Source: Candidatus Latescibacterota bacterium
GTDB taxonomy: Bacteria; Latescibacterota; UBA2968; GCA-2709665
NCBI GenBank assembly: GCA_965219995.1
Contig: CBDCOX010000002.1
Span: forward strand, 1,504,001 to 1,568,000
Length of the DNA stretch: 64,000 nt
Reading direction: 5' to 3'
Shown: positions 2,952 to 63,556 of the stretch, one piece after another
Numbering within the stretch: position 1 is the first letter of the stretch
How the letters are laid out: each line of letters begins with the position of its first letter
The notes under the pieces: model-generated
The model's input: only the letters and a program-made list of their open reading frames with translations
Databases searched by the model: none
Told to the model about the DNA's origin: nothing
Translations under genes and position numbers: made by a program

Positions 2952-3287
2952 CTATTGGTGCGCGTCGGTAAGGATTCGCTCGATGGAATCGACGAGCCGT
3001 TGTTTGGGCACGGCGCCGACGAGGCGGTCCATTTCATGTCCATTCTTGAAGAGCAGGAGTGTGGGCAGGCTTTGGATGCCGTATCGGACCGCCGATGAAT
3101 GAGAGGAATCGAAATCCATCTTACCGACTTTCAGACGCCCGGCGTATTCGGCGGCCAGATCCTTCACAATCGGATCAATCAGCCGGCAGGGTCCGCACCA
3201 GTTTGCGCCTACGTCGACGAGGACCGGACGGTCTGAGGAAATCACCTCCGTTTCAAAGGTCGCGTCGGTGAACGTAGCGGGCGTCAT
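2952..3287 (-). CDS. trxA: Thioredoxin
   Basis: WCGPC and SLPTLLLFKNG; start MTPATFTDATF after GAGGA RBS. Confidence 0.92.
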   Translation of the reverse strand: MTPATFTDATFETEVISSDRPVLVDVGANWCGPCRLIDPIVKDLAAEYAGRLKVGKMDFDSSHSSAVRYGIQSLPTLLLFKNGHEMDRLVGAVPKQRLVDSIERILTDAHQ

Positions 3288-3291
3288 AAGT

Positions 3292-3543
3292 TCATCCTCC
3301 TCTCTCTGGCAGATTGCGTGGCAGGTTGAGCCGCGAATACCCCGGAAAAAAGAAATCAGGCCGGATGGACTGAATCCTTCCAAGGTCACACATGAGACCG
3401 ATGTGTTCCGCATTGGGCGAAATCCTGCCGGTCTCCCACCGGGCAACTGTGGACTGGGGAACGTCCAGGATTTCTCCCAGTTTCTGCTGGGTGATCCCCA
3501 CCGTTTTTCGAAACTCCCTGATCCGCGACCGGTCGAACGGCAT
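3292..3543 (-). CDS. XRE-family HTH regulator
   Basis: IREFRKTVGITQQKLGEILDVPQSTVARWETG; ends 4 bp upstream of trxA. Confidence 0.88.
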   Translation of the reverse strand: MPFDRSRIREFRKTVGITQQKLGEILDVPQSTVARWETGRISPNAEHIGLMCDLGRIQSIRPDFFFPGYSRLNLPRNLPERGG

Positions 3544-3571
3544 CAAAATCTCCAGTGAATATATCATCTTT

Positions 3572-3606
3572 GCTATAAAAATAGCCAAATATAGATCGAC
3601 TGTCAA
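3572..3606 (-). promoter_or_regulatory. Promoter with overlapping palindromic operator for the HTH-trxA pair
   Basis: TTGACA (3606-3601)-17 bp-TATTTT; inverted repeat GCTAT-N4-ATAGC (3572-3585) covers the -10. Confidence 0.65.
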
Positions 3607-3752
3607 GGGTGAAATCGTCCATACGATTTCGTCCGGTCAAGAGTCAGAAATTACGCAGTGGGAAGCGCAGGCGGGAGCTAACCGGTGTCGCGACGATGAC
3701 GCGTCTGCATGCGGGCGCGTCCCCGGATTCGCCCGGATCTTAGGCGCGGATT

Positions 3753-4778
3753 TCAGGAGGAGTTTGCGACCGCTGATCTCAGGGCGTCATAGCACGCGTT
3801 CCAGCGGTCCAACTCGTCCCGGACCGTTTCTTCGTCACCCATTGAAGTCCAGCAGGTGACCCCGTGAATGAACATCAGCATCCGTTCGATTGCCAGGGCC
3901 GCCGTTTCCTCCTCCCGCCAGGCAGGTTTGCAGACCTCCCGGTACGATTCGAGGAATGCGGCTTCCACGTTCTCGTCCACAACTCGATATCGCGTTGATT
4001 CGCCCCAGGGCGAATCAGAATGCGGAGCCAGGTAGTACATCGATACACAAACTTCGAACACCCGCCGACCTATTGACGCGTGGCTGCAGTCAATAAACCA
4101 GAGGTTACTCTCGTGATCGATGATCATATTCTGGGGACTGGTGTCCAGGTGCAGACCGGTTTCGACCAGGCGCGGTCGAAGCCTGTCGATCGCTTCGACG
4201 CAGCGCTCTGTATCCTTTACGTACGTGATAAACTGATCGTGAAATGCACTTCCTCCGGTTGAATCCCGCATCTTCCGGACGTTCGCCTGCAACCTGTTGA
4301 CAGCAAGATGATTCATGGTGAGACGTTCTTCGCCCGGCAGGTCCCGATATCCGACGCCTGCACTGTGAAGACGGGCAATTTCAGCCCCCGCCAGACGAAC
4401 GTCCGATCCAATCCCCTTCTTCGGCGACCTTCCCTCAACGAATGGAAAGACCTCGACAATCATCCCCTGCTCTTTCGTCAAAAAGGTCTTCCCGTCAAGT
4501 GACTGCAACGGAAGGACGGTTCGTACGCCGAGATTACTCAGGTGCATCTGGAATCGATGTACCTGTGAAAGACGACGAGCCAATGACGATGAACCCTCTG
4601 AGTTTCGCCCTGGATCGGATACCCGCAGGACGTAGGGTTTTCCGGTATTCCGGCACGCGATCCTGACAACATGGGCAATCTTGCCGCTCATGTCGCGATA
4701 TTGCCCATCCCAGACAATACCATAATTCCAATAGAGCCACTCGGGATCCGGAAGCGCGTCGCTCGGGCTCAACGCCAT
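3753..4778 (-). CDS. APH/homoserine kinase type II-like phosphotransferase
   Basis: IARLH, HLDTSPQN and FIDC kinase motifs. Confidence 0.85.
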   Translation of the reverse strand: MALSPSDALPDPEWLYWNYGIVWDGQYRDMSGKIAHVVRIACRNTGKPYVLRVSDPGRNSEGSSSLARRLSQVHRFQMHLSNLGVRTVLPLQSLDGKTFLTKEQGMIVEVFPFVEGRSPKKGIGSDVRLAGAEIARLHSAGVGYRDLPGEERLTMNHLAVNRLQANVRKMRDSTGGSAFHDQFITYVKDTERCVEAIDRLRPRLVETGLHLDTSPQNMIIDHESNLWFIDCSHASIGRRVFEVCVSMYYLAPHSDSPWGESTRYRVVDENVEAAFLESYREVCKPAWREEETAALAIERMLMFIHGVTCWTSMGDEETVRDELDRWNACYDALRSAVANSS

Positions 4779-4903
4779 ATCACCTTGTCCTCACGCCAGG
4801 GAGAACCGCAGAAGCCTCCAGTTCAACACCGACGGTCATGATGGCGAATCCATTCATCGTCGACTCCGATCAGCAGCAGGGTTCAACGGTGGCCGCCCGC
4901 GAA

Positions 4904-5497
4904 TCAGGCGCCCGACGCCGCCTCTCTCCGGACTCGACGCGCGTTGAAATACAGGGCGGCGTGCCCACGCGCGTCGTCGACCGGCTTATGGGTGTGCGCC
5001 AGGCCGCCCCGTACTTCCGCGGGGTATTCCGGGCGGTCCCCCAGGTATTCCAGGTTCAATGCCGCCTGAACGTAGGACGGCACGTCCACGCCGGCTCCCA
5101 CAAAGGGACAGCGGATTCGGAACGGTCCCCGGAAAACGGAGGCGTTGCAGAATCTCCGCAAATACCAGTCGAGCCAGATGCCGTCGAACATCAATGGATG
5201 GGCGGCCAGCGCCAATTCGGGCCCGAGGCTTTCAAGCCAGGACAGGCAACGTTCCATCCCCGCGGCGGGCGGTACGGTGTTGTGCCGAATGTGCGCCCAC
5301 GCCTCCGGCTGGGTCCGCCACCAGGCCATCACATTCTCTGCGCCGCGAGCGCCCTCCAACGCATCGAGGTTGATTTCGAACACGTCCAATTCGCACCCAT
5401 CTTCGTCGAATGCCGCAAATCCGAGGCTGAGCATCGAATTTACGCCCGGCGTCGGCCCGTCAACCTCAATATCCAGAAAACAATAGATCAAGCCCAT
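4904..5497 (-). CDS. DEDDh 3'-5' exonuclease/exoribonuclease
   Basis: LDIEVDG, FD and THKPVDDA motifs. Confidence 0.85.
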   Translation of the reverse strand: MGLIYCFLDIEVDGPTPGVNSMLSLGFAAFDEDGCELDVFEINLDALEGARGAENVMAWWRTQPEAWAHIRHNTVPPAAGMERCLSWLESLGPELALAAHPLMFDGIWLDWYLRRFCNASVFRGPFRIRCPFVGAGVDVPSYVQAALNLEYLGDRPEYPAEVRGGLAHTHKPVDDARGHAALYFNARRVRREAASGA

Positions 5498-5535
5498 ACG
5501 GGTCTCTTTCAGGTGAATTGTTCACGACAACCCAA

Positions 5536-5739
5536 GGTTTTGATGTATAACGGGTTGTTTTTCAATAAATCCAGCGGAGTATTATGCGACGGCATTTCAT
5601 GAATTGCGAAATTGATTGGTCAGGGTGATGTTTCGTAGCCCACCGAGGTAAGGATCCATCGGTTTGGCCCGGAATCGTGAGCATTTGTCCTGCTCCTGGT
5701 CTTTATCCTGTTCATCCTGTCCATCCATGTTAGTTCATG
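5536..5739 (-). repeat. Family B element copy 2
   Basis: Closely similar along its length to 54900-55103. Confidence 0.9.
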
Positions 5740-5831
5740 CTTAGTAAGTTATCCAGGTTTCAGACATTGGATTACGAATTACGTCTGGCGAACGTCCGGC
5801 GCCTCTGATGTCATTCGAAGCGTCGGCGAAT

Positions 5832-5952
5832 GCACTTCGGCAAGCTCAGCACAAGCAACGCAGGCAGGGAAAGCAGCGCAGACAATATAAACAACGTAGC
5901 GAGAGGGGATGAATCGTCGGAAGAATGGTGGGGTATTTCCGGGACAGGACAC
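5832..5952 (+). mobile_element. Partial family A MITE (one TIR) with an adjacent micro-element
   Basis: GGGATGAATC..AAGAATGGTG.GGTATTTCCGGGACAGGACAC matches the end of the 25565-25726 copy; GCACTTCGGCAAGCTCAGCACAAGC at 5832. Confidence 0.8.
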
Positions 5953-5956
5953 CAGG

Positions 5957-7117
5957 TCAGGTGAGCCCGATGCTCCGGATTCGGGCACGATAGTGACGCT
6001 CAAATGCCGTTCGCAACCGGGAGAATCCCCACGGCTTTCCCCGTCTCTTCATTGAATCGACGACGACCGAGCCGAAGCCGAAGGCCAAATAGTGGCGAAG
6101 GTCTGAAACATCCGCCTGGAAGAACCCGGCGTCCCTCAGACGCGAAAACAGTCGATGCGCCGGCCAGACCGGATTGTGAAGCAGTACGCCGACCAGTATC
6201 TCTCTGCTTCCGAGGAACGCCTGTTCGAAATCGATGAATTTGTGGACCACGCCATCCCGCAGGAACAGGTTCCGCTGATTCCAATCCAGTTTGATCAGCA
6301 CCTCGTCCGAAAGCTCGACATTCGCGACATTCTCGCCGAGCACCTTGAAAATCGGAGCGCATTCGTCGCCGTTTGATGCCAGCCGGCAGAGACTGTCGTG
6401 TAGCGAGTCAAGATTATCATCCGCCCCCCTGCCCTGGAAATACCGGATTTTCAGGTCCGTACAGGGCACTGGCACGTTGAATAACTCTACGATCGCGTCT
6501 ACGTAACGATCGGTCAGCACGTTCAGATCGACGGTCGTCAGGTCCACGTCGCGCATCAGATCGCCGGTCACCCGCTCGATGACGATGGAGGCGTCTTGAC
6601 TCGAATCCAACAGGGTCGGAATCAAGGGCGACCCGCCGTAGTGCCGGTAGAATCCGACTTCACGCCTGAACCTGCCTGCCGGATCGTCGTTCTGATTGTA
6701 GGTCTTCCTGATCGAACCGCGAGGCAGATAGTCAATCCGGCTCTTGCGGCCGAAAGGGCGCAGGCCTTCTCGCAACACGGTTGACCTGAAAAACCGTTCC
6801 TGGAATTCCGTCGTCGCGATGATTTGCGCGTCGGAGAATTCTGTGCCTTCAGGCACAACGACGAGCTTGTCATCGTTGTCGTCTGCTCTTTGAATGACGG
6901 CGATGCACCTTCCGCTGAAGGACTCGATCGGTCTATGGACGCCAAGGACGTAGGCATCGAGGTTGTCGCCGTCAGCCGCCGGCACGTCGTCCAGAAATCC
7001 GTAGTTGACCGGATAAACGAACCCCGTGTCAGGATGTCGGGAGCCGAGAGGCCGATCTATCGAGACCCGGACCGTCTTTCCGATAAACGTCCTCGCATCC
7101 ACGAATTCGGCTTTCAT
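5957..7117 (-). CDS. Inorganic pyrophosphatase domain fused to an APH/kinase-like domain
   Basis: N-terminal YPVNYGF, DGDNLD and DDKLV; C-terminal LDWNQRN and FIDFE. Confidence 0.8.
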   Translation of the reverse strand: MKAEFVDARTFIGKTVRVSIDRPLGSRHPDTGFVYPVNYGFLDDVPAADGDNLDAYVLGVHRPIESFSGRCIAVIQRADDNDDKLVVVPEGTEFSDAQIIATTEFQERFFRSTVLREGLRPFGRKSRIDYLPRGSIRKTYNQNDDPAGRFRREVGFYRHYGGSPLIPTLLDSSQDASIVIERVTGDLMRDVDLTTVDLNVLTDRYVDAIVELFNVPVPCTDLKIRYFQGRGADDNLDSLHDSLCRLASNGDECAPIFKVLGENVANVELSDEVLIKLDWNQRNLFLRDGVVHKFIDFEQAFLGSREILVGVLLHNPVWPAHRLFSRLRDAGFFQADVSDLRHYLAFGFGSVVVDSMKRRGKPWGFSRLRTAFERHYRARIRSIGLT

Positions 7118-7557
7118 GTTTGACCGGTCTCAAATTGAACGCGCGTATCATCTTCACCGACGATCGTGAACCCCAGCCTGCGGTAGAATGCGATACCACG
7201 GGTGTTGATCTTTAGTACCTGAAGGGTCACGGTCTTTTTCTGCGCACGGGCATCCGCGACAATGCGGTTCATGCAGGCTGTCCCAAACCCTTTGCCCTGG
7301 TACTCGGGGAGGATAAAGATCTGATGGACCCTGACCGAATCGGTTGTGGAGGACGTGGAAAAGTAACCGATGTCATTTGCTTGAAACCCGATAATTCGGA
7401 CATCCTGTGAAGCAAATCGCGCATCGTGCATTTTCCGCTGGCGGATATGGTCCCAACCCCAGACCTGGTCGACGTACTCCCTGAACGCCGCCTCTTTCAC
7501 GGCTAAGACGAAGTCGCTGTCCCCCTCGCACGCATGGCGAATGCTCAATCCATCCAT
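7114..7557 (-). CDS. GNAT acetyltransferase
   Basis: ILPEYQGKGFG and N..GIAFYRRLGF; the longer ORF start lies inside a repeat. Confidence 0.9.
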   Translation of the reverse strand: MDGLSIRHACEGDSDFVLAVKEAAFREYVDQVWGWDHIRQRKMHDARFASQDVRIIGFQANDIGYFSTSSTTDSVRVHQIFILPEYQGKGFGTACMNRIVADARAQKKTVTLQVLKINTRGIAFYRRLGFTIVGEDDTRVQFETGQT

Positions 7558-7569
7558 AACAGCGTCGAA

Positions 7570-7737
7570 ATCCCCCACCGCATCAGCCATCCCCGACCCT
7601 TCGACACGCTTCGACAAGCACAGGGACCGAACTCAGGGATCGGCTCGGCTTCTGCGACTCCCCCTCAAGGGGGGAGTGATCGGCCTGTCAATCGGGCACG
7701 CGCAATCACTTCCACCTATTTGGTTGCGGTTGAACTA
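7570..7737 (+). repeat. Family E composite palindromic element copy 1, with doubly nested micro-element
   Basis: CCCCCACCGCATCAGCC..GGCTCGGCTTCTGCGACTCCCCCTCAAGGGGGGAGTGAT..CTATTTGGTTGCGG shared with 63728-63920. Confidence 0.88.
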
Positions 7738-8306
7738 CGCGAATCAACGATAGGACGTATCTCGACGACGCGAAAATCGGGGCGGGACATGGCGACCCAG
7801 GAAGGCAGACCCAACCGTCTCCATAGCGCGAACGGTTCAAATTCGGAAATGCGGCTGACAAACAGGCTCAACACCGTGCCATGCGTAACGATTGCGATAT
7901 TCTTGTGTCGAAACCGGTCTGAGAGTCCATTCACGGCATTCGAAAACCTGTCGTGCGCTTGATCTGCGGTCTCGTCGCCGAAGACCGGGTCCTTTGGTCG
8001 GGAGAAAAACCGCTCGATTGACCGCTCGAATCGCTCACTTTTCAGGAAGCCGACGTTGGCGCGCTCATGTTCGTGCAATCCCTCGACGATTTCTATCGGG
8101 ACGTCCAGCGCGCCAGCCGCGATTTCAGCCGTCTCCAAGGCCTTGGGTTCGGTGCTGCTGGCAACGAGATCCAGATTGTATCGATCCAATCGGTCACCAA
8201 GTTTTCGCGCACGCCGGCGCCCTTCGCAGGAAAGCCGCCATTCCCTTGAAGGTACGGACGGATCGATCTGCGGCAGCGAATGTTTCACAAGAATGAGCGT
8301 TTGCAT
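7716..8306 (-). CDS. Histidine phosphatase family protein
   Basis: LVKHS, SSTEPKALETA, LHE and IVTHG. Confidence 0.85.
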   Translation of the reverse strand: MQTLILVKHSLPQIDPSVPSREWRLSCEGRRRARKLGDRLDRYNLDLVASSTEPKALETAEIAAGALDVPIEIVEGLHEHERANVGFLKSERFERSIERFFSRPKDPVFGDETADQAHDRFSNAVNGLSDRFRHKNIAIVTHGTVLSLFVSRISEFEPFALWRRLGLPSWVAMSRPDFRVVEIRPIVDSRSSTATK

Positions 8307-8350
8307 GAAGGCGCGATGGGATTGCCGAACACCTGTTGCGAGACCAAAAC

Positions 8351-8626
8351 CTACTTGAGGTTCAAAACCAGTTCCTTACCCAATGCCCTGGCGGCCTTTC
8401 TCAGCGTTGACAGCCGGATGTCTCCCGCGCGGTTTTCCAGGCGGGAAATCGCCGTTTTCTTTGTATGCATCAACCTGGCCAGCTGCTCCTGAGTCAGGCC
8501 GGCCTCCACCCGGGCCTGCCGAAGCAAGACACCGAATTCAAACTCCTTGTACCCTCCCTCAAAACCCTCTGCAAATTCAGGATCTGCCTTTTTTCGCCGC
8601 GCGATATACTCTTCGACATCACTCAT
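8351..8626 (-). CDS. HigA-like XRE antitoxin
   Basis: LRQARVEAGLTQEQLARLMHTKKTAISRLEN; start MSDVEEY. Confidence 0.88.
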   Translation of the reverse strand: MSDVEEYIARRKKADPEFAEGFEGGYKEFEFGVLLRQARVEAGLTQEQLARLMHTKKTAISRLENRAGDIRLSTLRKAARALGKELVLNLK

Positions 8627-8790
8627 GACTCCCGCTCCCGGTGACGATTCATATAATCCCTCATGTAACTCTCCGCTCTTTTGATTTCTCAAGTATCCAT
8701 TTTTGAAGCCTCCTTAGAGTGTCCATGAAAGAGAATGAGTCTGAACACCCCGAAAGGGCGCTAACAAAGATAACATATTCGTTAACTTCA
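8623..8790 (-). pseudogene. Decayed HigB/RelE (Gp49-like) toxin
   Basis: Manual frame LILFHGHSKEASKMDT*EIKRAESYMRDYMNRHRERES*; internal TGA at 8689-8691; ATGA overlap with the antitoxin. Confidence 0.75.
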
Positions 8791-8868
8791 GGCACCAAAA
8801 AAAACGCCGAATGAGATCCAGATAATTCCGGACATTCGGCGGGTTGCGGCGCCTGACGAATTCTTCGT

Positions 8869-9354
8869 TCATTCGCCCAGGTCAGAGGGTCCATCGGGCG
8901 GCTCGTTCCCGGATAGTTTCTCCAGTAGAGAATGAAGATCGCGCGGCGAAAACGTCTCTTCAGACCTGCCGATGTCGTCGATCGACCACCAGCGGAACTC
9001 GCGGAAGGCCGATGCCTCGCCGCGCGCGGGATTCGCGTCCATGGACGGTTCGAAGGGGTCAGTCTGAACCCGATAGAAGTACTCGTTCTGGCTATATTCG
9101 CGGTTGTCCCACGTGAATTCGCACCGCCTCGTCCATACCCGTTGTCCCACTGAGAATCTCGTGGCGCCCGTCTCCTCCGCAACCTCCCTGCGAAGTGCGT
9201 CCTCGTCAGACTCACCGGGCTCGAGACCTCCGCCTGGAGTCACCCAAAACTCATTTCCGGATATGGGCTCCTGCACCCTCAGCAGCAGGACATTACGGTC
9301 CGGCGTCATCATCACCGCTCGTACGACTCGTCTTCTGATCATGGGTGTGTCCAT
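8869..9354 (-). CDS. NUDIX hydrolase
   Basis: GGGLEPGESDEDALRREVAEETG. Confidence 0.93.
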   Translation of the reverse strand: MDTPMIRRRVVRAVMMTPDRNVLLLRVQEPISGNEFWVTPGGGLEPGESDEDALRREVAEETGATRFSVGQRVWTRRCEFTWDNREYSQNEYFYRVQTDPFEPSMDANPARGEASAFREFRWWSIDDIGRSEETFSPRDLHSLLEKLSGNEPPDGPSDLGE

Positions 9355-9384
9355 TCGATTATCCCCTCAACTCCCTACCCCGGG

Positions 9385-9640
9385 GGAGACGTTAGACGGG
9401 AGACGGTAGAGGATCACGTCGCGTCCACTGGATATCGACATGGCGTCGCGTCGTCAATTCATCAATGAGCGAAGGCATGTCTCTTGCAGGAATGGGTTTG
9501 TCGAGTGGATTGTCCGCATGTAGGCGACCTGTCAGGACGCGATGGATGAACCGCAGGCGGACCAACTCGTCTACCTTCTCACGTCTCACGTCTCACCGGT
9601 TTCAGGTCTTTCATCTCCCGTCTACCGGCTCCCGTCTCAA
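9385..9640. repeat. Family D element: inverted heptamer tracts flanking ~160 bp of non-coding DNA
   Basis: gagacgttagacgggagacggtag ... cgtctaccttctcacgtctcacgtctcacc..ctcccgtctaccggctcccgtctc. Confidence 0.8.
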
Positions 9641-9711
9641 CGCCATTAGGGTACCCTTCCCCCTTCCCATCGGAAACAGGTAGAACGATGAGGTGTTATT
9701 CGGACACAGCA

Positions 9712-10815
9712 CTACACCAGCCCGAGGTCCTCATAGATGGCGCTGTTGGTCTCCCGGTTGCGCACCTGGTGGGCGCGTTCTCCCGGTGTGCCGTTGAAAA
9801 TGCATACGACAACCAGGCTAGCATCGGGGTCCACGAAGGCGATCGACGACTGATAACCCGCATTGCCAAAGGATCGGGGCGAGGCGTAGCGTCCGAACCC
9901 GTACGGGACCGATTCCTTGCCGTAGATGTTCGAGTTGACATAGAAGCCCAGTCCCATATCCACAACGTGACCCAGGATTTCGTCCCTCAAGCCGGTTCGA
10001 TGGCGGGCGGTAATCGCTTCGACGGTCTGGGGAAGAAGCAGTTGCATCCCTTTGAACGTGCCATTCCCGAGCAGCATCTCGTAGAATCGACCCAACTCCC
10101 TCGCCGGACCCCTTCCGCTGCCGCCAGGAACACATCGACCGATCGTTCGCTGCAGATCCACGCTGTAGTGCGACGGCTCTGGCGCTCCCCCGGCGGTATC
10201 GTACATCAATCCGATCCGGTCCCGGTTCGCCTGATAGGTTGACGGATCCATCGAGAGGCTGCAGTTGGGCATATCGAGCGGCTCGAAAATCTCGTGATGG
10301 ACGTAGCTGTCGAAGGCCCTGCCGCTCTTTCGGGAGACGATCTCGGCAAGCACGAACCAGGCATTCGCCACGTCATATCTCGCCTGCCGCCCCGGCAGCC
10401 AGTCGTCTCGCAGGGGTGCATCGCAGATGGCTGCGACGATCTCGTCCCATGAAGATTCCGACCACGCGACGTCCACCGAGCCGATCCCGCCGGTGTGTGT
10501 CAACAGGTGCCGAAACTTCAGACCCGATTTCCCGCCGGCCCCGAAGTCCGGCAGGTGGAGGCAGACTGGATCGTCGATCTCGATCTGACCCTGCTCCCAC
10601 ATTTGAGCGACGGCAACCGCGGTGATACCCTTCGTCAACGACATCCAGACGGTCATCGTATCACTCGTCATCCCACGGGTCGTCGTCGCGTTCCCGACGG
10701 CCGCGTCTGCGACGACATTACCCTCCATAGACACGTAGAGTTGGGCACCCAAATGGAGGCCATCTCTGACGCCAGCATGAAGTAGATCAACGGTCCGTGT
10801 CAGCGATACACCCAT
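9712..10815 (-). CDS. Serine hydrolase (beta-lactamase class C-like)
   Basis: SLTK, LLTHTGG and catalytic Y; start MGVSLTR after GGAGG. Confidence 0.9.
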   Translation of the reverse strand: MGVSLTRTVDLLHAGVRDGLHLGAQLYVSMEGNVVADAAVGNATTTRGMTSDTMTVWMSLTKGITAVAVAQMWEQGQIEIDDPVCLHLPDFGAGGKSGLKFRHLLTHTGGIGSVDVAWSESSWDEIVAAICDAPLRDDWLPGRQARYDVANAWFVLAEIVSRKSGRAFDSYVHHEIFEPLDMPNCSLSMDPSTYQANRDRIGLMYDTAGGAPEPSHYSVDLQRTIGRCVPGGSGRGPARELGRFYEMLLGNGTFKGMQLLLPQTVEAITARHRTGLRDEILGHVVDMGLGFYVNSNIYGKESVPYGFGRYASPRSFGNAGYQSSIAFVDPDASLVVVCIFNGTPGERAHQVRNRETNSAIYEDLGLV

Positions 10816-10843
10816 CGGCCCTCCATGTCCCGAAAGCGCAAGA

Positions 10844-14067: not shown

Positions 14068-14080
14068 ACTGTTGTCCGGC

Positions 14081-54669: not shown

Positions 54670-54744
54670 GACGGCGCCCACGTCGACTGGTCGGGTTTTG
54701 GATTCAAGCTGATTGGTGAACGCTGATCGCTGCTCTTGCTCCGC

Positions 54745-54787: not shown

Positions 54788-54899
54788 TCACCACTTCGCA
54801 ACAGACGCATCCAATGCCGAATCGAGACATGATGCAATAGGAAAGTGATATGAATTTTCGCAACATAAGAATCTATGATGGATTATTCGCGAAAACCCT

Positions 54900-55103
54900 G
54901 GTTTTGATGTATAACGGGTTGTTTTTCAATAGATTCTGCGAAATATCACGCGTCAGCATTTCATGAATTACGAAATTGATTGGTCAGGGAGATGTTTTGT
55001 AGCCCACCGAGGTAAAGATCCATCGGTTTGGCCCGGAATAGTGAGCATTTGTCCTGCTCTTGGTCTTTATCCTGTTCATCCTGTCCATCCATGTAAGTTC
55101 ATG
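54900..55103 (-). repeat. Family B element copy 5
   Basis: Closely similar to 5536-5739. Confidence 0.9.
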
Positions 55104-55112
55104 TTTAGTGAA

Positions 55113-55802
55113 TTATTCAGGCTCTATGTCATGTTTCCTCAGGACGAGAAGCTCATCTTCCTGGGCCGCCTCCAGGGTAAAATTGAACCGGTCCGCGTCC
55201 AGACACATATCGACGTCTCGTGGATTTATGCCCGGGTAGTCCTCTGCCGCTGCCTGACGAATATCGTCTGCAGCCCCGGACTCGGTGGCTCTCCGGATAT
55301 ACGGGGCTGGATCGGTCTGCGGGTCCCGAATGAGCGCATCGATGTACTGGGCGCACGCCAGGTCCTCTTCAGCCGCCCCGTCCTCGCCTGTCACGACGTA
55401 GGTCAACTCCTTCGGCGCCAGTTCGCGCAATCTGCGAGCGACAGAAGATGCGCAGACGAAACCCGTGCAGATCAGCGGCTTGCAGTGGCGCACGGCAACG
55501 GCGCCGATTGTGCCGGCCGTTGTCCGTTGCACGATGGTTTTCCCGCGAATGTCCGCTTCCCGCAAGTCCGCGGGTGAATTGTACAGATCGAATCCCTTTG
55601 CAGGCGCGCCGTCCTTCAACGCCAGGGATCCAGGAATCCGCGCCTTGATTTCAAGAGCTTCCTTGAGGTCGTCAATCAGAATCATCCTCGACGCGCCAAT
55701 GTGCAAGGCCCATGCAGCAACGGTATACGCTCGCATCACGTCGATAACAACTGCTGCGCCGGAGACCGAGTCACACTCACCGATTCCTAAAAACCTTGCC
55801 AT
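55113..55802 (-). CDS. 2-phosphosulfolactate phosphatase (ComB-like)
   Basis: VVIDVMRA, NSP, TTAGT and EDLACA. Confidence 0.9.
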   Translation of the reverse strand: MARFLGIGECDSVSGAAVVIDVMRAYTVAAWALHIGASRMILIDDLKEALEIKARIPGSLALKDGAPAKGFDLYNSPADLREADIRGKTIVQRTTAGTIGAVAVRHCKPLICTGFVCASSVARRLRELAPKELTYVVTGEDGAAEEDLACAQYIDALIRDPQTDPAPYIRRATESGAADDIRQAAAEDYPGINPRDVDMCLDADRFNFTLEAAQEDELLVLRKHDIEPE

Positions 55803-55814
55803 GAAATAGTCCCT

Positions 55815-56621
55815 TCAATGAACGCGTTCCGGATATGGATTCTCGGGAAGTCTAACTCCCCCTACCCAGGCTACATGGTGTGTGGTCTCGATTTCACCGG
55901 ATGATGTCGTGTTGCGTTCAGCGAACAGCTTCAGGCGAGGGTCATCATAGCGGGGAAGGGATCCCCCGCCCCAGGCCCAGATGGAACACTGGAACTGAAG
56001 CCAATCGTAGATATCCGGATAGATCCTTTTCTCAATGACGTCGGCTGCGAAACGAATCCCTACACCGCTCCTTTCCATTGAGACGCGCATCTGGTCCTGA
56101 ACAGTTATCGTCTGGGATAGCCGTGTACTATTCCCGAAGATTTCCTTCACCTCCTGATGGTGCAACTCCCCAATCAGTTCAAAGAAGATCAGACCTTCCG
56201 GCTTCAGGACACGCAGTGCGGCCTGAACACCATAGATGTCGTACCCGATGGGCGCGCGTTCGGAGTAGACGAAGTCGAACGATTCCGGCGCCAGGGAGTC
56301 GCTCTCTGCAAGGAAATCGAGACGCCTGAATTCAACGTTCTGCGCATCACTCTTTCTCAGGGCGTTCTCGGCCAGTTCTAAGTGTCTGGGGTCGTTTTCG
56401 ACACCGAGAGCCGAGTCAAAGCGAACGGCATTCTGCAGTAGCATTCCGCCGTTCCCGCACCCGATGTCCAGGACTCGCATCTGAGGGCGGAACTGAGACG
56501 CAATGATCTCCGTTGCCCGAGGCGCGATGTTTCCATCGGTCCGGTATTTCGCCGGTCGCGATCCGTAGTAGGAGTGTTCCTCATTCAGAATCGACTTCAG
56601 GCGATTCTGGTCAAGTTCCAC
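55815..56621 (-). CDS. Class I SAM-dependent methyltransferase
   Basis: VLDIGCGNG and SFDFV. Confidence 0.9.
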   Translation of the reverse strand: MELDQNRLKSILNEEHSYYGSRPAKYRTDGNIAPRATEIIASQFRPQMRVLDIGCGNGGMLLQNAVRFDSALGVENDPRHLELAENALRKSDAQNVEFRRLDFLAESDSLAPESFDFVYSERAPIGYDIYGVQAALRVLKPEGLIFFELIGELHHQEVKEIFGNSTRLSQTITVQDQMRVSMERSGVGIRFAADVIEKRIYPDIYDWLQFQCSIWAWGGGSLPRYDDPRLKLFAERNTTSSGEIETTHHVAWVGGVRLPENPYPERVH

Positions 56622-56708
56622 AGATTGAATCTCCGTTCGGATAGAGCTGAACTGAAGTGGGGAGACGCGCCAAGGCTTCGAGCCGCAGGCTACATCAAAA
56701 ATACCTGA

Positions 56709-57371
56709 TTACGGCCGCGCACCTCTCACGGCAAAGAAAAACGGATGGACCTCTTCCGCAGTATCGGCACCTTTAAGCCCGGCGCCCACGACACCTTCCT
56801 GTTCAATCTCAAACCCGGTTTCAGCGAGAATCTTCCTGTACGTTCCGGGCCCAAAGTTGCTCCAATACATGGTTTCGCCGAAGAAGTCATCCTCCGTGTA
56901 TCCGGGCCCGTCATCTTTCGGTGCGACCGTAAACAGAAGGAGTCCACCCGGCCTGATCCACCGCGCGAACCGCCGAAAGAGTTCCCGATGCTCCTGTCTC
57001 GGAATATGGAAGATCGCGTAGTAGCTGACAATTGCGTCAAAGCTGCCTTCGGGGAATTCGGTCTCCGTAACGTCAGCGTGGATGAACCTGGCGGTAGAGA
57101 CGTTTTCCCTGGCCATGGCTATCATGCTCGAGGAGATGTCGATCCCCGTAACTGAAAAATTATCAGCAAGTTCCTTCACAAAGGGGATACCTGACCCACA
57201 GCCGACGTCAAGAATCCTTGAACCCGGTTCCAGGCGCCCCGCGATCAGGTTGATCTCCGCCCAGGGCCTGGCACTTCGTTGGCTCGCATATTCCGACGCG
57301 CATCGGTCGTAGGCCGCTCTGACAAACGCTCGATAATCGGCCTCTGGATCGTTTGCAATCTTGAAAGACAT
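56709..57371 (-). CDS. Class I SAM-dependent methyltransferase
   Basis: ILDVGCGSG and YAIFHIPR. Confidence 0.92.
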   Translation of the reverse strand: MSFKIANDPEADYRAFVRAAYDRCASEYASQRSARPWAEINLIAGRLEPGSRILDVGCGSGIPFVKELADNFSVTGIDISSSMIAMARENVSTARFIHADVTETEFPEGSFDAIVSYYAIFHIPRQEHRELFRRFARWIRPGGLLLFTVAPKDDGPGYTEDDFFGETMYWSNFGPGTYRKILAETGFEIEQEGVVGAGLKGADTAEEVHPFFFAVRGARP

Positions 57372-57390
57372 TTCTCTTCACCCGATTCTA

Positions 57391-57597
57391 GTGTTTCGTC
57401 CCAAAAATTCCTCACCATTCGACCGGCAATTCATCCCGTCTATTGACGTTGCTTGCGCTGAGCTTGTCGAAGTGCCCTCGCTCGCCGACTATACGCATGT
57501 CGCCTGCACTCAGGCGCTGGGTCCTGAGCCTGTCGAAGGATGCGAGACGGGCGACTCGGCGGTCGAATTTAGGCAACTTATTTCCGGGACAGAACAC
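57391..57597 (-). mobile_element. Family A MITE, 207 bp, carrying two micro-element insertions
   Basis: Aligns to 31497-31659 except for +23 bp (57453-57475) and net +21 bp (57518-57540); intact CTAG at the left junction. Confidence 0.9.
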
Positions 57598-57718
57598 CAG
57601 GAATTCGCTTCGAAAGCAGTTATTCGGCCTTTCCCGGGAGGAAACTCGCCATCTGGCATATTGATATCCAGGCGATATTGTGACCGTCGCAATCACGGTT
57701 CCGGGACAGCAGTGATCA

Positions 57719-60088
57719 TTACTCGTCGCGAAGGGCGTCTACGGGATTCAGCCTTGCCGCCCGAAGGGTTTGTCCGGCGACAATGAAGACAACGATCGAT
57801 AACGCGAGCAACGTCGAATAGACAAACACATCGACAGTCATCTGAATCCTGTAGGAGAAATCCTGCAGCCATCGGGACATCACATAGTATGCGACAGGCC
57901 ACGCCAGGACGCTGGCCAGGAGTCCTGCAAATATAAACTTCCCTGAGTACATCGCCACAACACGCCATTTCGATGCGCCCAGAACGCGACGAACGCCAAT
58001 TTGCTTCGTATCCCGTTCAAGGGTCGATCTGACGAGTCCCGCCAGACCCATTCCGGACAACAACAGCGTGATGCATACGCAGATGCCAACTATCCTGTTT
58101 AAGCCACGTTCTCTTGCGTACCATCGCTCAAACCTCTCGGTCAAGAACCCGCTATTTGACGAGAATGCCGTCTGTGGTGCAACTTTGGACCATGTCAGAC
58201 GAATCCAATCCACGGCATCTTCCACACGTTCCGGATGAATTCTTGCCAGAATGACTGGACCGCTTTTGACGAGGAAAATGCCCAGTGGTTCGACCGGATT
58301 TTGCGGTGACATAAAATGGAAATCCTTGACAACACCCACGACCGTTCGGCGTCTGCGCCACCAGGTGATTTCCTCCCCGATCGGCGAGTCCAGTCCCAGC
58401 AGTCTTACGGCTGTTTCATTGAGCAGACAGGCGTGCAGGGTTTCATCCTGGGCGGAAAAACCTCGTCCCTCATTGATTTCAATGCCCAGGGTCTCCAGGT
58501 AGCGACGACTCGCCGCGAGACTTCGGATGGATACATTGCCGGAAACGGAACGACCCCGCGCCGTATAGCTTTGCAGATTACCTCCCGGGATGCCGCCGGA
58601 TGCAACATACAGAATGGATGGCGATCGATTCAATTCCCGCTCTATCGTCAGGCGTTGATGCGTCGAAAAGCCCGGCGTGGAAAAATAGAAGACCTGTTCG
58701 GGCGACAGACCCAGGTTCCCTTTGTCGATATGGTCCAACTGCAAGTATACGATTGAAGCAACAATCAGCAGAAGTGTGGAAATCCCTACCTGAAACAGGA
58801 ACGGCACATTCCGCAACCACGCTGCCGTTCTGAATGCCAATCTGCCTTCCACGATATTTGCGGGCTTTCCCCTGACCAGCCAGAGGACGGGCAAACTCCC
58901 GGCGCCGATACAAACCAGGAAGACTGGCACGCAAAGTGTGGTTAATACTCCGGTAACATGTTCGAACCCGTAAGATCGGACCGTAAGTGTGATACGATTC
59001 AACCAGGGCAGACACAAGTAGGCGAGTGCGATAGCAAACAATAACGCAATTGCGACAATCAAGAGTGAGTCGGCCACGAAATGCAATGCCAGTTCGGTTC
59101 GATCTCCTCCGAAGACCCTCCTGGCTCCAATTTCCCTCGAGCGGTCCAGAAATCGGGCCGTGTTGAAATTCACAACATTCGTACAGACACCGACCAAAAT
59201 GAAAAACGCCAGGACTGCAGGGACGTAGATATAGACGGATCGGCTGAGACTCACGTTTGCCGAGAACTGTTGATTCTGCGATGGGTCAAGATGGATATCC
59301 GTCAATGGCTGGAGAGAGAGCTGAAAGCGCCTGGCGTCTCGATTTCCATAGAATTCCCGGATGAATTCGCGCTCCTGAAGATCGAAATCGTCGGATGTAT
59401 AGCCTTCATCAAGCAGCACGTACGTGTAGACGGACATCCAGCGTTTGGAATTAAAATAGGTCGGGAGATGGCTGGTAACGCTGTTTATCGAGAAAAGATA
59501 GTCAAAGGAAATGTGCGAATTCCGGGGAATGTCCTTCAGGACACCGGTTACCGTCAGGAAATACGCTTTGCCCTTGAATTCTCCCGCTTTGATTACGCTT
59601 CCCATGGGATCCGAATCCCCAAACAGCCTTCTTGCCAGGGATTCTGTAATCACAATCGAAAAGGGTTTTGCGAGCGCAGTCCGGGCGTCTCCCCTGACCA
59701 GCGGGAAGGTGAATATATCGAATACGTTGGCGTCGACGCTGTAACCTGACGCACGAAATTTACGATCATCGTGCTCAACCACCCGGTTAAAACGGAAAAA
59801 ACGGACGTAATCAAGAATATAGGGATATTCTTCAGACAGACGCGTGCCCATAAACCACGCGGATTGATGCCAGATGCGCTCCCCGTTTTCGAATTGTCGT
59901 CGTACGGTAAGGCGATATATCCGGTCGGCATTCTCATGAAAACGATTATAGCCGAATTCATCCAGCACGTTGACGCCGTTCAGCAATACAGCAGCAATAC
60001 CGACGGCCATCCCTGAGATATTTATGGTTGATGCGACTTTGTGCCTTTTCAGGTTTCGCCAGGAAACGATGAGGTGCGATTTCAACAT
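57719..60088 (-). CDS. MacB/FtsX-family ABC transporter permease (no ATPase gene adjacent)
   Basis: WRNLKRHK..INISG, REIGARRVFG, GVVKDFH and NPVDALRDE. Confidence 0.92.
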   Translation of the reverse strand: MLKSHLIVSWRNLKRHKVASTINISGMAVGIAAVLLNGVNVLDEFGYNRFHENADRIYRLTVRRQFENGERIWHQSAWFMGTRLSEEYPYILDYVRFFRFNRVVEHDDRKFRASGYSVDANVFDIFTFPLVRGDARTALAKPFSIVITESLARRLFGDSDPMGSVIKAGEFKGKAYFLTVTGVLKDIPRNSHISFDYLFSINSVTSHLPTYFNSKRWMSVYTYVLLDEGYTSDDFDLQEREFIREFYGNRDARRFQLSLQPLTDIHLDPSQNQQFSANVSLSRSVYIYVPAVLAFFILVGVCTNVVNFNTARFLDRSREIGARRVFGGDRTELALHFVADSLLIVAIALLFAIALAYLCLPWLNRITLTVRSYGFEHVTGVLTTLCVPVFLVCIGAGSLPVLWLVRGKPANIVEGRLAFRTAAWLRNVPFLFQVGISTLLLIVASIVYLQLDHIDKGNLGLSPEQVFYFSTPGFSTHQRLTIERELNRSPSILYVASGGIPGGNLQSYTARGRSVSGNVSIRSLAASRRYLETLGIEINEGRGFSAQDETLHACLLNETAVRLLGLDSPIGEEITWWRRRRTVVGVVKDFHFMSPQNPVEPLGIFLVKSGPVILARIHPERVEDAVDWIRLTWSKVAPQTAFSSNSGFLTERFERWYARERGLNRIVGICVCITLLLSGMGLAGLVRSTLERDTKQIGVRRVLGASKWRVVAMYSGKFIFAGLLASVLAWPVAYYVMSRWLQDFSYRIQMTVDVFVYSTLLALSIVVFIVAGQTLRAARLNPVDALRDE

Positions 60089-60191
60089 TCAGCTGCTCAT
60101 CCTGAAAGACAACTCCAGCGTATCGTACTCGCCGGATATCTTAGTCATATAACGAGTCGGAATTTCGGCGCTGTGTTCCACGGACCGAGTT

Positions 60192-60560
60192 CTACGCGTT
60201 CTTGTCCTGTGCAATACACAGACTGTTACCGTCGGGATCCTCGAAGCTGAACTCGATATTTCCCCAGCTCTGGTCCCAGAGCTTTCCAACAGGAATACCC
60301 GCCTGCCTATACTCCTCGTAGACGGCCGCCGCGTCCTCGACGTAGATCTGTACCGTCCGCGTCCCCGGCGGACCGTCGCCGGGAAACGAGGAGACGACAA
60401 TGTGGGCCGAATCCCGGACAACACCCATGTAGCACGGGTCCCGCTTTGTCGAGTGTGGCCGCCAGGCGTACACGCGGCGAAACCCGAGTTTTCCGCAGTA
60501 GAACTCCTCCGCAGCCACTGAACTCGATACACCCAGAATTGGTACCGCCTCTTTGAACAC
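60192..60560 (-). CDS. VOC/bleomycin-resistance-like protein
   Basis: AVPIL..EFYCGKLGF and WGNIEFSFEDPDGN; GTG start after GGAGG. Confidence 0.9.
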   Translation of the reverse strand: MFKEAVPILGVSSSVAAEEFYCGKLGFRRVYAWRPHSTKRDPCYMGVVRDSAHIVVSSFPGDGPPGTRTVQIYVEDAAAVYEEYRQAGIPVGKLWDQSWGNIEFSFEDPDGNSLCIAQDKNA

Positions 60561-60704
60561 GCTATAACCTCCAATTTTGCTTTGCAATCGGAAGGACCGG
60601 CACTGAAGAACGGGGCTGCGCAACGGCCGACTCCAGTCTGCCTGTTTCACGCAACCCCAATGCTCCGCCAGTTTGAATGACAACACACCGAGCGCTGGGG
60701 ATGA

Positions 60705-61502
60705 TCACGTCTTCCGGAGTATCACGTAGACGTTTCCATGTTCACCGGACACATGCTCCCTATCCCCGAGTGCTACGAAATCCTCTCCGTAAATCGCGGC
60801 GACTTCGAATTCTTCAGATTTGTGTGCCAGTTTCTCCAGATCAGAAAATAGCCAGAGCCTCAACGTATGGCTCTCCTTGTATCGATCCGTTTTCCCGTTT
60901 TGCTCGACCGCAATCGTGCATTCCTGGTGACATAATCTCGATTCTCGGTCTTCGTCGAGAATTCTCCACCAAGTACTCACTCGGACGCCCTCCCGTTCAC
61001 TTGTCCAATGATCGCCATCCGGAAGTACGGCTTCGTGGGCGAAGTTGAGGTGGACAATGTAGATTCCGTTCTGACGAAGTGACGAACCTGTAGCTCGCAG
61101 ATGGGAGACGATTTCGTCATCCGAATGGAGATATCCGATGCTGTTGATCGAATTCAGCGCGGCATCGAATACGCCGGGGACCTCAGCGGATACCATTTCC
61201 CCGGGCACGACGCGGACAATCAGGGCGTATCCTGCCGCTGCAACCGAGTCGATTGCATATTGAACCATATAGCGGTTGGCGTCATACCCTGCAACGTCGA
61301 ATCCACCCGCAGCCAGGGCCCTTAGCATGCGCCCCGTTCCACAGGCGGGTTCCAGAATGTGCCTAACTGGGAAGGGAACGTGCGATTCAAAGACGCGTTT
61401 GAAGAAGCGTATCTCCTCGGACAGATCCCATGAGAACGCGATGTCATAGATCCGAGGATGGTTGTAGAGCTCGAACCTGTCAGTCCGTTCGTGCGTAGTC
61501 AC
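60705..61502 (-). CDS. Class I SAM-dependent methyltransferase
   Basis: YDIAF and ILEPACGTGR. Confidence 0.92.
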   Translation of the reverse strand: MTTHERTDRFELYNHPRIYDIAFSWDLSEEIRFFKRVFESHVPFPVRHILEPACGTGRMLRALAAGGFDVAGYDANRYMVQYAIDSVAAAGYALIVRVVPGEMVSAEVPGVFDAALNSINSIGYLHSDDEIVSHLRATGSSLRQNGIYIVHLNFAHEAVLPDGDHWTSEREGVRVSTWWRILDEDRESRLCHQECTIAVEQNGKTDRYKESHTLRLWLFSDLEKLAHKSEEFEVAAIYGEDFVALGDREHVSGEHGNVYVILRKT

Positions 61503-61560
61503 ATGATTCTCCCTGTCGTTCAAGGTTCCCGGCGCCCCCGACCTCGCGATTGTCAGGCAC

Positions 61561-61587
61561 AGGGCGCCCACATGGGACGCCCCTACA
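61561..61587 (-). repeat. GTAG-type REP
   Basis: Reverse strand GTAGGGGCGTCCCATGTGGGGCGCCCT. Confidence 0.8.
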
Positions 61588-61743
61588 AGACGAGGGGGTT
61601 GTTTCAGACCCGAAGACGCTTGATCACGTAACGCAAACTGTCAGTTTGCGCTGCTGTCGCAGAGCCGTTGTCCTGAGTTTACGGTTCCTGAGTGTCGTAC
61701 CGGGGACGGATGTCGCGTGGTTGGCCGACCGGCGTGGTTCAGG

Positions 61744-61857
61744 CTAGCCGTACTGTTCCTCCAGCCACGCGACCACGAAGTCCGCCAGGTCCCTGGCGTC
61801 GATCAAGCAGGAGTCTGCGGCGCCAACCGGACCCTCTGCGCAGCGTCCCAGGGCCAT
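61744..61857 (-). pseudogene. Probable 3' gene remnant
   Basis: ..LIDARDLADFVVAWLEEQYG* reads like a hydrolase C-terminal helix. Confidence 0.4.
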
Positions 61858-61900
61858 ATACGCAGACGTTTTGTTGGATACAGACCTGCGCGAGTAATTA

Positions 61901-62581
61901 CTACGAATCCCACCCCCAACTTTTGACCAGACCCCGGTCCGCGCCCCCCTGAACCAGCAATGGTATCAGCTCCGGATGCTTCTGGCGCACGGCCGTATTG
62001 CACAAGAGCCGGGTATAGGGCTTCACGAGTGCGCCTTCTCCGATCAGCCACCGGGCGAGTTGCTCGTGGCCTCCCGCCACGGCAAAGTGCAGGGGGGTCA
62101 CGCGCCAGACGGTGTCGTCCTCCTGTTCCCCGGTCAACAGGTCCGGCTCGGCATTCAGATGGTGTCGTACCCGTTCAGTGTCACCCAAGTAGCACGCCGA
62201 GTAGATATCCAGTACGGTCCCTGCTTTTTCCAACATCCGGGCGAGTTCCAACCGACGATAACGTCGCGCAATACAGTAGGGCTTCAGGAGAACCGTGATC
62301 TCTGCCCGGATCCGCCCCGGGATATTGGGATCGGCTCCCTCGCGCAGCAGGAACCGCACGACGTTGATCCGATTGCCGCGCGTTGCCTCCCAAAGAAACG
62401 TCCTGTTGTGCCCGCCGCTCTTGGCATGCAGGAGCGTCGGATCCTGTCTCAGATACCGCTTCAAGGCCCTCAAATCGCCGCGCCGTACCTCCTTTAATAT
62501 CTTGTCGATACCGAAACGACCGCTGTGGCCCGCGCGCGGCTTCGTCTCATTTCCCCATCCGTTGTCGTCCGAAGACATCAC
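61901..62581 (-). CDS. Ankyrin-repeat protein
   Basis: FLLREGADPN and TPLHFAVAGGH. Confidence 0.88.
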   Translation of the reverse strand: MMSSDDNGWGNETKPRAGHSGRFGIDKILKEVRRGDLRALKRYLRQDPTLLHAKSGGHNRTFLWEATRGNRINVVRFLLREGADPNIPGRIRAEITVLLKPYCIARRYRRLELARMLEKAGTVLDIYSACYLGDTERVRHHLNAEPDLLTGEQEDDTVWRVTPLHFAVAGGHEQLARWLIGEGALVKPYTRLLCNTAVRQKHPELIPLLVQGGADRGLVKSWGWDS

Positions 62582-62809
62582 TCATCTTCCTTTGACAGTT
62601 TAGGGCGGAGATTGACCTTGATTCGTCATTCTTCCGGGACGTTAATTCGAATATATGCAAGCGAATAAAGACGATTTGACGTCGGATTTCCACGAACCTT
62701 CAGGTCACTGGACGTGAACAAAAAAAAATGTGCTTCCGGACGACCTTTACGCCCCGTTTCGAAAGTATTCTCCACAGTGTCGGCTTGCTGGATTTTTCGA
62801 TGCAAGGCA

Positions 62810-62955
62810 AATTGCCACAAGAGGCACAAAAACAGCTATTCTGTTACAGAGCGTATCGCCGAAAGACAAGGAAATACGTTCAGGGTCACGGCGTTACGAC
62901 ACACGCCGTTTCGCACCGATACCCTTTGTGTCTTTTGTGCTTTTTGTGGCCAATT
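62810..62955 (-). repeat. Family C element copy 2, complete with terminal inverted repeats
   Basis: AATTGCCACAAGAGGCACAAA ... TTTGTGTCTTTTGTGCTTTTTGTGGCCAATT. Confidence 0.88.
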
Positions 62956-63100
62956 TTTCGATTTTCTTTTTTTTAAATTGAGATTGATAGCTGTGGAGAT
63001 TTCCCGGTGCGCGAAATTCCGGTGGCTGCTGTTTGAAGGCCTGAATGCGCCGCGCCCGTCGCCTTCGAATTGGCGACCTGCACGGAAGTCGTGCGAATGT

Positions 63101-63556
63101 TCAGCCGGTCTTTCGCAGTTCAGCGTTCAGCCTGTCCAGGCTGTCTTTAGGCCATGTCTCAATCCTGTCATACCCCTTATCAAACTGAGGAACGTGGGCC
63201 GGCAGTCCGAGCCAGGCGTGCTTTTCCCTGGTCCAGATGTGTGCGTTAATTTCCAGAACCCTCAAATCGTCCAGCGTCTGCGACCGCAATAACGCCGTGC
63301 ATGGGTGATGAGTCGCAGTACTGTAGATCACATCCTCGCACGACTGGCAGATGAACGTCGTTCGATTCGCCGCGACAGACTTCGAGACGAACTCTCCCTT
63401 GTCGCACGTTACATCGGTTTCCAACACAATGATGGTAATTCCAAATGCCGAGCCGGAAGCCTTTTGACAGTCCACGCAATGACACGCATGCACAAAGAGA
63501 GGCGCATTCAGAAGTCTGTAACGCACCTCTCCGCACCGGCAGCCACCGGAATACAT
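63101..63556 (-). CDS. GFA (glutathione-dependent formaldehyde-activating) family protein
   Basis: GGCRCGEVRY, CHCVDCQKASG, FICQSC and HIW. Confidence 0.92.
   Translation of the reverse strand: MYSGGCRCGEVRYRLLNAPLFVHACHCVDCQKASGSAFGITIIVLETDVTCDKGEFVSKSVAANRTTFICQSCEDVIYSTATHHPCTALLRSQTLDDLRVLEINAHIWTREKHAWLGLPAHVPQFDKGYDRIETWPKDSLDRLNAELRKTG

Follow-up and report, generated by a model that had tools for sequence, protein, structure and literature searches.

A co-oriented gene block without attC sites as the probable eroded tail of an integrase-less cassette array in a Latescibacterota genome

The window, a stretch of 64,000 nucleotides (C2:1,504,001-1,568,000) in the 5.43-Mb genome of a Candidatus Latescibacterota bacterium (G000, 60.7% GC), is filled by small enzyme genes that lie almost entirely on the minus strand and belong to a longer array, considered here for its relation to integrons. 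Window genes are named by their start position, and offsets in kb are window coordinates. A Pfam scan of the 68 window open reading frames (ORFs) identifies six GNAT genes (7114, 15059, 26144, 30644, 33720 and 40172), five VOC genes (29182, 39695, 51725, 53401 and 60192), five methyltransferase genes (41622, 47572, 55815, 56709 and 60705), three NUDIX genes (8869, 43319 and 46927), an AadE-like protein (PF04439, 22681) and toxin genes of the PIN and BrnT types. These families had been named in an original prediction made from the sequence alone, which counted four APH-like genes where the scan finds one in the window (52258); six more APH genes lie further along the array. Closely packed neighbors, also predicted, are present: the genes at 7114/7117, 42407/42410 and 34177/34187 overlap, and those at 50173/50177 are separated by 3 nt. 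All gene counts derive from a crude codon-usage caller, which makes 3938 calls covering 85% of the chromosome and misses small genes.

The co-orientation of these genes is stronger than anywhere else in the genome. Between positions 2952 and 63556, 59 of 62 called genes are encoded on the minus strand (59/63 in the whole window), compared with 2049 of 3938 genome-wide, in line with the predicted figure of about 64 out of about 68. Among 118 other blocks of 63 genes each, the strand majority reaches 0.889 at most (median 0.603), and the bias is not a genome-wide effect. C2:1,514,844-1,644,202 contains all three of the longest same-strand runs in the genome, of 52, 32 and 26 genes. The array extends beyond the window at both ends, from -13 kb to +155.7 kb (~169 kb, C2:~1,490,800 to ~1,659,700), and 142 of its 150 genes are on the minus strand, with the same gene families throughout. 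Its upstream end is marked by a PG_binding gene, followed by a plus-strand PolB-like gene and then by a cytochrome-oxidase operon. This PG_binding/PolB boundary is kept in three relatives (G010, G013 and G008) from a comparison set of 22 genomes of the bacterial family, in which G010 is the closest relative and the relatives' arrays were fetched only in part. The gene found exactly at the boundary in G000 and these three relatives encodes a family-B DNA polymerase with an RNase H-like exonuclease part (L019:3818-5944, plus strand).

One explanation for this arrangement is that accessory ‘house-cleaning’ enzyme genes, inherited vertically and co-oriented by leading-strand selection, make up an ordinary region that adjoins a CALIN (an attC-site cluster without an integron-integrase); its genes would never have been cassettes, with occasional cassette spill-in in some relatives. 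Cumulative GC skew peaks at ~0.9 Mb and reaches its minimum at ~3.9 Mb, and dnaA lies at 3.38 Mb, which makes the minus strand the leading one across the array, as this explanation requires; the flanking core genes are likewise mostly on the minus strand. However, the strand majority of 94-95% exceeds that of every other block, and replichore bias amounts to only ~55-70%. The mean gene GC of the window (0.574, compared with 0.609 genome-wide) is also below that of every other block. The predicted shift of composition from gene to gene is present in modest form only, since the standard deviation of gene GC (0.042) is above the block median (0.0335) and other blocks reach 0.055. With respect to replication geometry, dnaA (C2:3381978-3382463) sits ~0.5 Mb off the GC-skew minimum, and the replichores are unequal (~2.4 and 3.0 Mb).

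Beyond the window, the same array carries sites of the attC type. Some spacers share a repeat, of which 11 seed copies (alignment A1, +82.7 to +146 kb) display the anatomy R''(..TAAC), spacer, L'', variable center, L', spacer, R'(GTTA..). Their partner columns pair in 70.6% of cells, compared with 34-42% when slid by one to three positions, and 14 of 23 pairs have changed on both sides. In an alignment of 120 sites from four relatives (G015, G016, G012 and G003), which was fitted to the covariance model R1 and thereby favors the structure, 72.8% of cells pair (27-43% when slid), with a covariation score of 0.326 against at most 0.09. The structure was set by hand and then tested by these pair counts; RNAalifold run on a MAFFT alignment missed the long-range helices. 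The site consensus is 5'-AC.TCnnnTAACA...AACGTTAnnnG(A/C)(A/C)A-3'. Median site length is 97 nt, at least 87% of the 120 sites conserve TAAC and GTTA, and the L box covaries.

The distribution of these sites follows the array closely. At E<0.06, R1 matches the G000 genome 15 times, always on the minus strand (C2:1,586,661-1,655,985). A hidden Markov model (HMM) built from relatives' sites only returns 16 matches, all on the minus strand from +70.9 to +151.2 kb; the rest of the 5.4 Mb has none. All 16 are intergenic and lie on the gene strand, and nine start -10 to +43 nt from a stop codon. The R1 family is present in 19 of the 22 genomes of the bacterial family, where matches follow the strand of their own array (94/94, 120/120 and 220/220), at a median spacing of 903-954 nt in G016 and G015. 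From the GC skew and dnaA, the bottom strands of the G000 sites would lie on the leading-strand template. The same placement is given for 25 of 30 sedentary chromosomal integrons, all large ones included, in the accessible part of Loot et al. 2017 (PMC5371416). Other approaches were less informative: no Rfam family matches the window (gathering threshold) or three site-rich loci (E-value threshold), so that Rfam either lacks an attC family or has one that these sites do not match. Scanning the genome for strict RYYYAAC...GTTRRRY hairpins reveals no enrichment at the array, the pattern being too strict for these sites, and 8-mer enrichment across 126 array spacers yields no dominant motif.

Within the array the sites form a gradient: the stretch between -13 and +70 kb has none, and the 16 sites occur between +70 and +152 kb, the first of them ~7 kb past the window end. 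By our own models, the two or more attC-type hairpins that define a CALIN are thus found in the array outside the window and not in 2952-63556. Taken with the strand bias, this gradient suggests that the window is probably the oldest, integrase-distal, attC-eroded and domesticated tail of a ~169-kb, ~150-gene integrase-less cassette array of the CALIN type. In the mechanism proposed, genes would have entered as cassettes through tyrosine-recombinase recombination at attC-type hairpin sites, whose polarity would force inserts into a single orientation and so account for the 95% co-orientation. The recombinase gene would have been lost in the G000 lineage, the sites in the older part of the array would have decayed or been deleted, and the genes of that part would have been kept by selection and would now be inherited vertically. 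In the accessible part of Cury et al. 2016 (PMC4889954), CALINs with degenerate attC are likewise proposed as a step toward stabilizing captured genes.

Arrival as cassettes is inferred for the window genes themselves, and homologues in relatives provide a link to cassettes. Seven of 63 window genes (15059, 17734, 30644, 33720, 46927, 47572 and 52258) have homologues with 49-80% amino acid identity that carry a site directly 3', mostly in other genera. In G013, a GNAT cassette bounded by two sites lies between the orthologues of 47572 and 50177, and in G008 a weak site is kept 3' of the 47572 orthologue; the corresponding spacer in G000 is 81 nt long and has no match. The original prediction had called the array ‘integron-like’, which holds, and had proposed a platform different from IntI/attC, which for the sites is not supported: 15-16 attC-type sites occur in the same array, and relatives carry them between orthologues of window genes. 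The existence of window-gene homologues as attC-bounded cassettes, together with the same gene families filling the site-bearing part of the array, also speaks against an ordinary region of never-mobile genes.

Gene order in relatives supports both sides of this argument. Most window genes are present in same-genus relatives on the same relative strand, and at least 14 species of one genus share the gene block. In the window part, 45/45 orthologues keep their strand and 44/44 adjacencies are kept relative to G010, a perfect collinearity that favors the ordinary region. The more distant relatives keep strand equally well but not order: 41/41 orthologues keep strand and 21/40 adjacencies are kept relative to G013 (longest collinear subset 33), and 45/45 and 29/44, respectively, relative to G008 (longest collinear subset 38). 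No inversion is found in the three comparisons, and single genes have been transposed in the more distant relatives. This movement of single genes between species with strand kept throughout is not what an ordinary region would lead one to expect. The site-rich part has rearranged even relative to G010, with 60/60 orthologues keeping strand but only 39/59 adjacencies kept, and the right-hand core flank is fully collinear. The orientation-preserving shuffling that had been predicted is thus not active in the window now, given its lack of sites and its 44/44 adjacencies with G010.

Orthologues are found in G013 and G008 for 41-45 of the 63 window genes, compared with 24-31 of the 72 genes of the site-rich part. 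Between G000 and G010, genes share 75-98% identity (most 84-98%), and spacers are mostly unalignable and of unequal length (e.g., 31 vs 204 nt and 15 vs 742 nt). Window genes have a median ratio of nonsynonymous to synonymous divergence (dN/dS) of 0.155 and a dS of 0.77 (86 pairs), and are under purifying selection; flanking core genes have 0.111 and 0.61, a similarity that again fits an ordinary vertical region. For genes shared in the site-rich part, dS is lower (0.35). A GHL6-family cassette with its site (C2:1,637,788-1,638,830) is 97.4% identical in nucleotides to its G013 counterpart (L034, 1-1043), compared with ~75-85% for window genes, which suggests recent exchange between species. 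Two tight pairs in G000 (5957-7117/7114-7617 and 49199-50173/50177-51520) have orthologues 6-13 kb apart in G013; these tight junctions therefore arose secondarily.

No gene anywhere in G000 passes the 265-bit TIGR02249 cut-off for integron integrases, as predicted for the array. The best matches (92 and 61 bits) are Xer-like genes located 0.6 and 1.6 Mb from it. A true IntI, with its additional domain (AD), occurs in one of the 22 family genomes, G017 (464.5 bits, 338 residues), and no attC-like site lies within ~18 kb of its copies. G017 has a full copy of this IntI and a partial one (L032; C1:2158606-2160397), and the same IS91-type recombinase gene follows each of them ~400 nt on. A second group of IntI-like recombinases scores 214-241 bits on TIGR02249 and lacks ~41 residues exactly at the place of the AD. 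These AD-less recombinases are encoded at or in the arrays of G012, G013, G016 and G017 and form part of IS91-family units in G031, and none is encoded by G000 or G010; an inspection of the array ends, as the original prediction advised, thus yields a recombinase at the heads of relatives' arrays and none in G000. Flanks were scanned at 17 AD-less recombinase loci; attC-like sites occur within ~5 kb at 10 of them, and in nine of these the sites are downstream and co-oriented. A candidate recombinase remnant at +85 kb of G000 was rejected: the match is the beginning of an unrelated ORF, and the G013 recombinase seems to be fused to or inserted into that ORF.

Element E, an attI-like candidate of ~120 nt, accompanies these recombinases. 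It contains GAACGTTCGCAGATC and ends in CCGTAGTT, with conservation stopping at GTT and copies diverging beyond. It follows the recombinase gene in G013 and G012, follows 3' fragments of such genes in G013, G012 and G008, and marks array heads in relatives (G013 L049/L050/L048, G012 L155, G008 L052/L054, G015 L145). Among the G000 copies, one stands at the array head and one is accompanied by the last ~13 codons of a recombinase gene. The G031 unit (2.5 kb, a tyrosine recombinase plus an IS91-family transposase) exists in six copies (L172, L174/L175, L176, L177 and L179), five of which have co-oriented attC-like sites 2-3 kb downstream. Its right end reads ...AATCGTTA (...CGTTA), followed by a copy-specific nnnGnnA, which places the junction inside an R'-type box and looks like a crossover inside the R' box. 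The G031 IS91 transposase, used as a query, has no match in G000.

These observations leave some ground for the predicted departure from IntI as far as the recombinase is concerned, and raise the alternative that the array is run, now or until recently, by an AD-less IntI-like recombinase acting on attC-like sites and the attI-like element E, with the window within its reach and the enzyme supplied in trans. The recombinases in five relatives (G031 included), the sites beside 10 of 17 such loci, the three GTT-ending copies of element E in G000, the differing gene order of the site-rich part between G000 and G010 and the recurrence of the layout in other phyla all agree with it. Yet neither G000 nor G010 encodes such a recombinase, and the window offers no site to act on. 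The G013 recombinase appears to be inserted into another gene, that of G031 belongs to an IS91-family element, and the AD is stated to be necessary for integron recombination in the accessible part of Ghaly et al. 2022 (PMC9668308, citing Messier and Roy 2001). As an account of the window, this alternative is improbable.

The interpretation of the window as an eroded cassette tail has several points to its disadvantage. With filters off, R1 detects no attC-like site in the window (best E 0.29, weak matches six plus and six minus), nor does the HMM (best E 0.83 and 0.33), in accordance with the predicted lack of recognizable attC; the window holds no detectable remnant of element E, and the homologous part of G010 has no site either (best E 0.48, weak matches 13 minus and 12 plus). 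Both R1 and the HMM were built in this analysis, and the HMM, seeded by R1 matches, is not fully independent. Single-site folding z-scores are modest (-1.7 to +1.2). The median gene length of 237 amino acids is above that of typical cassette ORFs, and some window genes look like core genes, e.g., the BamB-like gene 50177-51520, which has a counterpart of ~80% nucleotide identity in a second family of the order. Cassette homologues account for only the seven of 63 window genes listed above, in arrays fetched in part, and the gene orientation is equally plain leading-strand orientation. The absence of sites is also what an ordinary vertical region would show. With the strand majority, the low GC, the strand-preserving moves and the attC-bounded homologues set against it, however, the ordinary region is an unlikely origin for the window, and an eroded cassette tail is the preferred reading.

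The AD-less recombinases are not confined to this bacterial family. Homologues of the G016 recombinase are widespread (581 confirmed stretches, 80 loci kept); they come from distant phyla, with the window's own clade not among them, and an IS91-type transposase adjoins only one of the 80. All nine R1 matches in the kept loci are downstream and co-oriented, as are all 16 found with filters off in five of them. In a Desulfitobacterium sp. chromosome (L070, 10001-20730), about 10 co-oriented attC-like sites follow an AD-less recombinase, and co-oriented sites follow such a gene also in L069, L077, L082, L064, L071 and L134. No IntI above the TIGR02249 cut-off was found in the five genomes checked, the Desulfitobacterium sp. 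among them. Downstream of recombinase genes (272 kb in all), a generic TAAC...GTTA hairpin heuristic gives 36 candidates on the plus strand and 39 on the minus strand, compared with 5 and 7 upstream (605 kb); the heuristic is blind to strand and of low sensitivity, with three candidates per strand in L146 against 14 covariance-model sites. The literature searched, with subscription papers and supplements outside its scope, yielded no description of a layout combining an AD-less recombinase, a GTT-ending site and an attC-type array. Tentatively, and with more doubt than confidence, these loci may represent a second class of integron-like platform, with an AD-less IntI-like recombinase at the head, a conserved GTT-ending insertion site directly downstream and then co-oriented attC-type cassettes, spanning Bacillota (Desulfitobacterium), Thermodesulfobacteriota, Ignavibacteriota, Nitrospirota and a Methanoperedenaceae archaeon. 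G000 would then be its recombinase-less fossil, and many ‘CALINs’ would not be orphans.

The remaining features of the locus are listed in Table 1 together with those discussed above. The palindromic repeat families of the window, which had been proposed as possible recombination sites, are present, but they are dispersed through the genome and not specific to the array: the ‘GACGGGAGACG’ heptamer motif has 155 copies genome-wide and four in the array, and the terminal repeat of the element resembling a miniature inverted-repeat transposable element (MITE) has 39 and six, respectively. They are therefore unlikely to be recombination sites, and this role was rejected. Two intergenic stretches at window positions 5529-5757 and 54893-55121 form a 229-nt direct repeat of 90% identity. 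As to affiliation, ESM Atlas neighbors of one window protein come most often from Planctomycetota, which is no more than a lead, and a PF07596 search had no match in control genomes either and says nothing on the phylum.

Table 1. Features of the window and of the adjoining array in G000. Positions are window coordinates unless prefixed with C2.
Feature	Position	Strand	Basis or remarks
Repetitive extragenic palindromic (REP)-like ‘GACGGGAGACG’ repeats	758..1488		also 9383-9650; family genome-wide
Plus-strand island: PIN-domain toxin gene (2296-2709) and small upstream ORF (2039-2299)	2039..2709	+	gene calls, Pfam
Co-oriented small enzyme genes (GNAT, VOC, S-adenosylmethionine (SAM)-methyltransferase, NUDIX, HAD, His-phosphatase, APH, AadE-like, others)	2952..63640	-	gene calls, Pfam
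Gene without Pfam family	9688..10242	+	Pfam, relatives; same relative orientation kept in G010, G013 and G008
BrnT toxin gene (17734-18030) and overlapping downstream small ORF (17508-17786)	17508..18030	-	Pfam; in G015 the homologue forms a cassette with attC-like sites on either side
MITE-like element with terminal inverted repeats	31497..31658		related copy 57391-57596, partial copies 5892-5952 and 25666-25726; family genome-wide
Pair of OpuAC-type binding protein and ankyrin-repeat protein	36140..38884	+	Pfam
Methyltransferase gene	47572..48375	-	G008 orthologue (80% amino acid identity) with attC-like site directly 3'
APH-family gene	52258..53376	-	G015 homologue (70% amino acid identity) directly followed by attC-like site (65.8 bits)
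attC-like sites (n=15-16), outside the window	C2:1,574,876-1,655,985	-	covariance model, HMM
Element E copies, outside the window	C2:1,588,173-1,588,279; 1,651,155-1,651,273; 1,658,541-1,658,654		

Comparison with known systems, which draws on the accessible parts of the papers cited, places the array near several of them without full agreement with any. Like a CALIN (PMC4889954), it has co-oriented cassettes, heterogeneous attC-type sites and no IntI nearby or genome-wide. CALINs as described there average five attC sites, compared with ~169 kb and 150 genes here; unlike them, over half of the array, the whole window included, is without a detectable site, and the block is shared by at least 14 species. 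Vibrio-type sedentary chromosomal integrons (PMC5371416) are alike in size class, co-orientation, a lineage-specific attC family, toxin-antitoxin cassettes and bottom-strand orientation, whereas the array studied here has no IntI, far fewer sites (16 per ~72 genes, then none) and longer genes that are largely conserved between species. The Xanthomonas integrons whose intI is inactivated (Colombi et al. 2025, PMC12444791) are alike in that they were acquired ancestrally, lost integrase activity and have stable arrays passed on vertically. As presented in that source, they retain intI remnants and recognizable attC in small arrays, whereas the present array has lost its integrase and, across 80 kb or more, its sites; the locus would be an extreme case of the Xanthomonas/CALIN path of stabilization. 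Archaeal integrons, in which attI lies immediately downstream of a co-oriented intI (PMC9668308), are alike in layout, a recombinase being followed by a conserved site that stops at the canonical GTT insertion point and then by co-oriented cassettes, but their IntIs are described with the AD, whose ~41 residues are lacking in the array-head recombinases found here.

If the window is indeed the domesticated tail of a cassette array, the locus would constitute a natural time series of cassette domestication, with a variable, site-rich head and a frozen, site-less, selected tail conserved across the genus, and the proposed course from capture by integrons to lasting residence in the chromosome could be tested on it directly. 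Standard callers, which look for attC within a few kb of each other and for an IntI with the AD, would catch only scraps of the 169-kb structure. Integrons are reported to be nearly absent from Bacillota. If AD-less recombinases truly serve these arrays, both the definition and the host range of integron-like capture would widen, Bacillota included.

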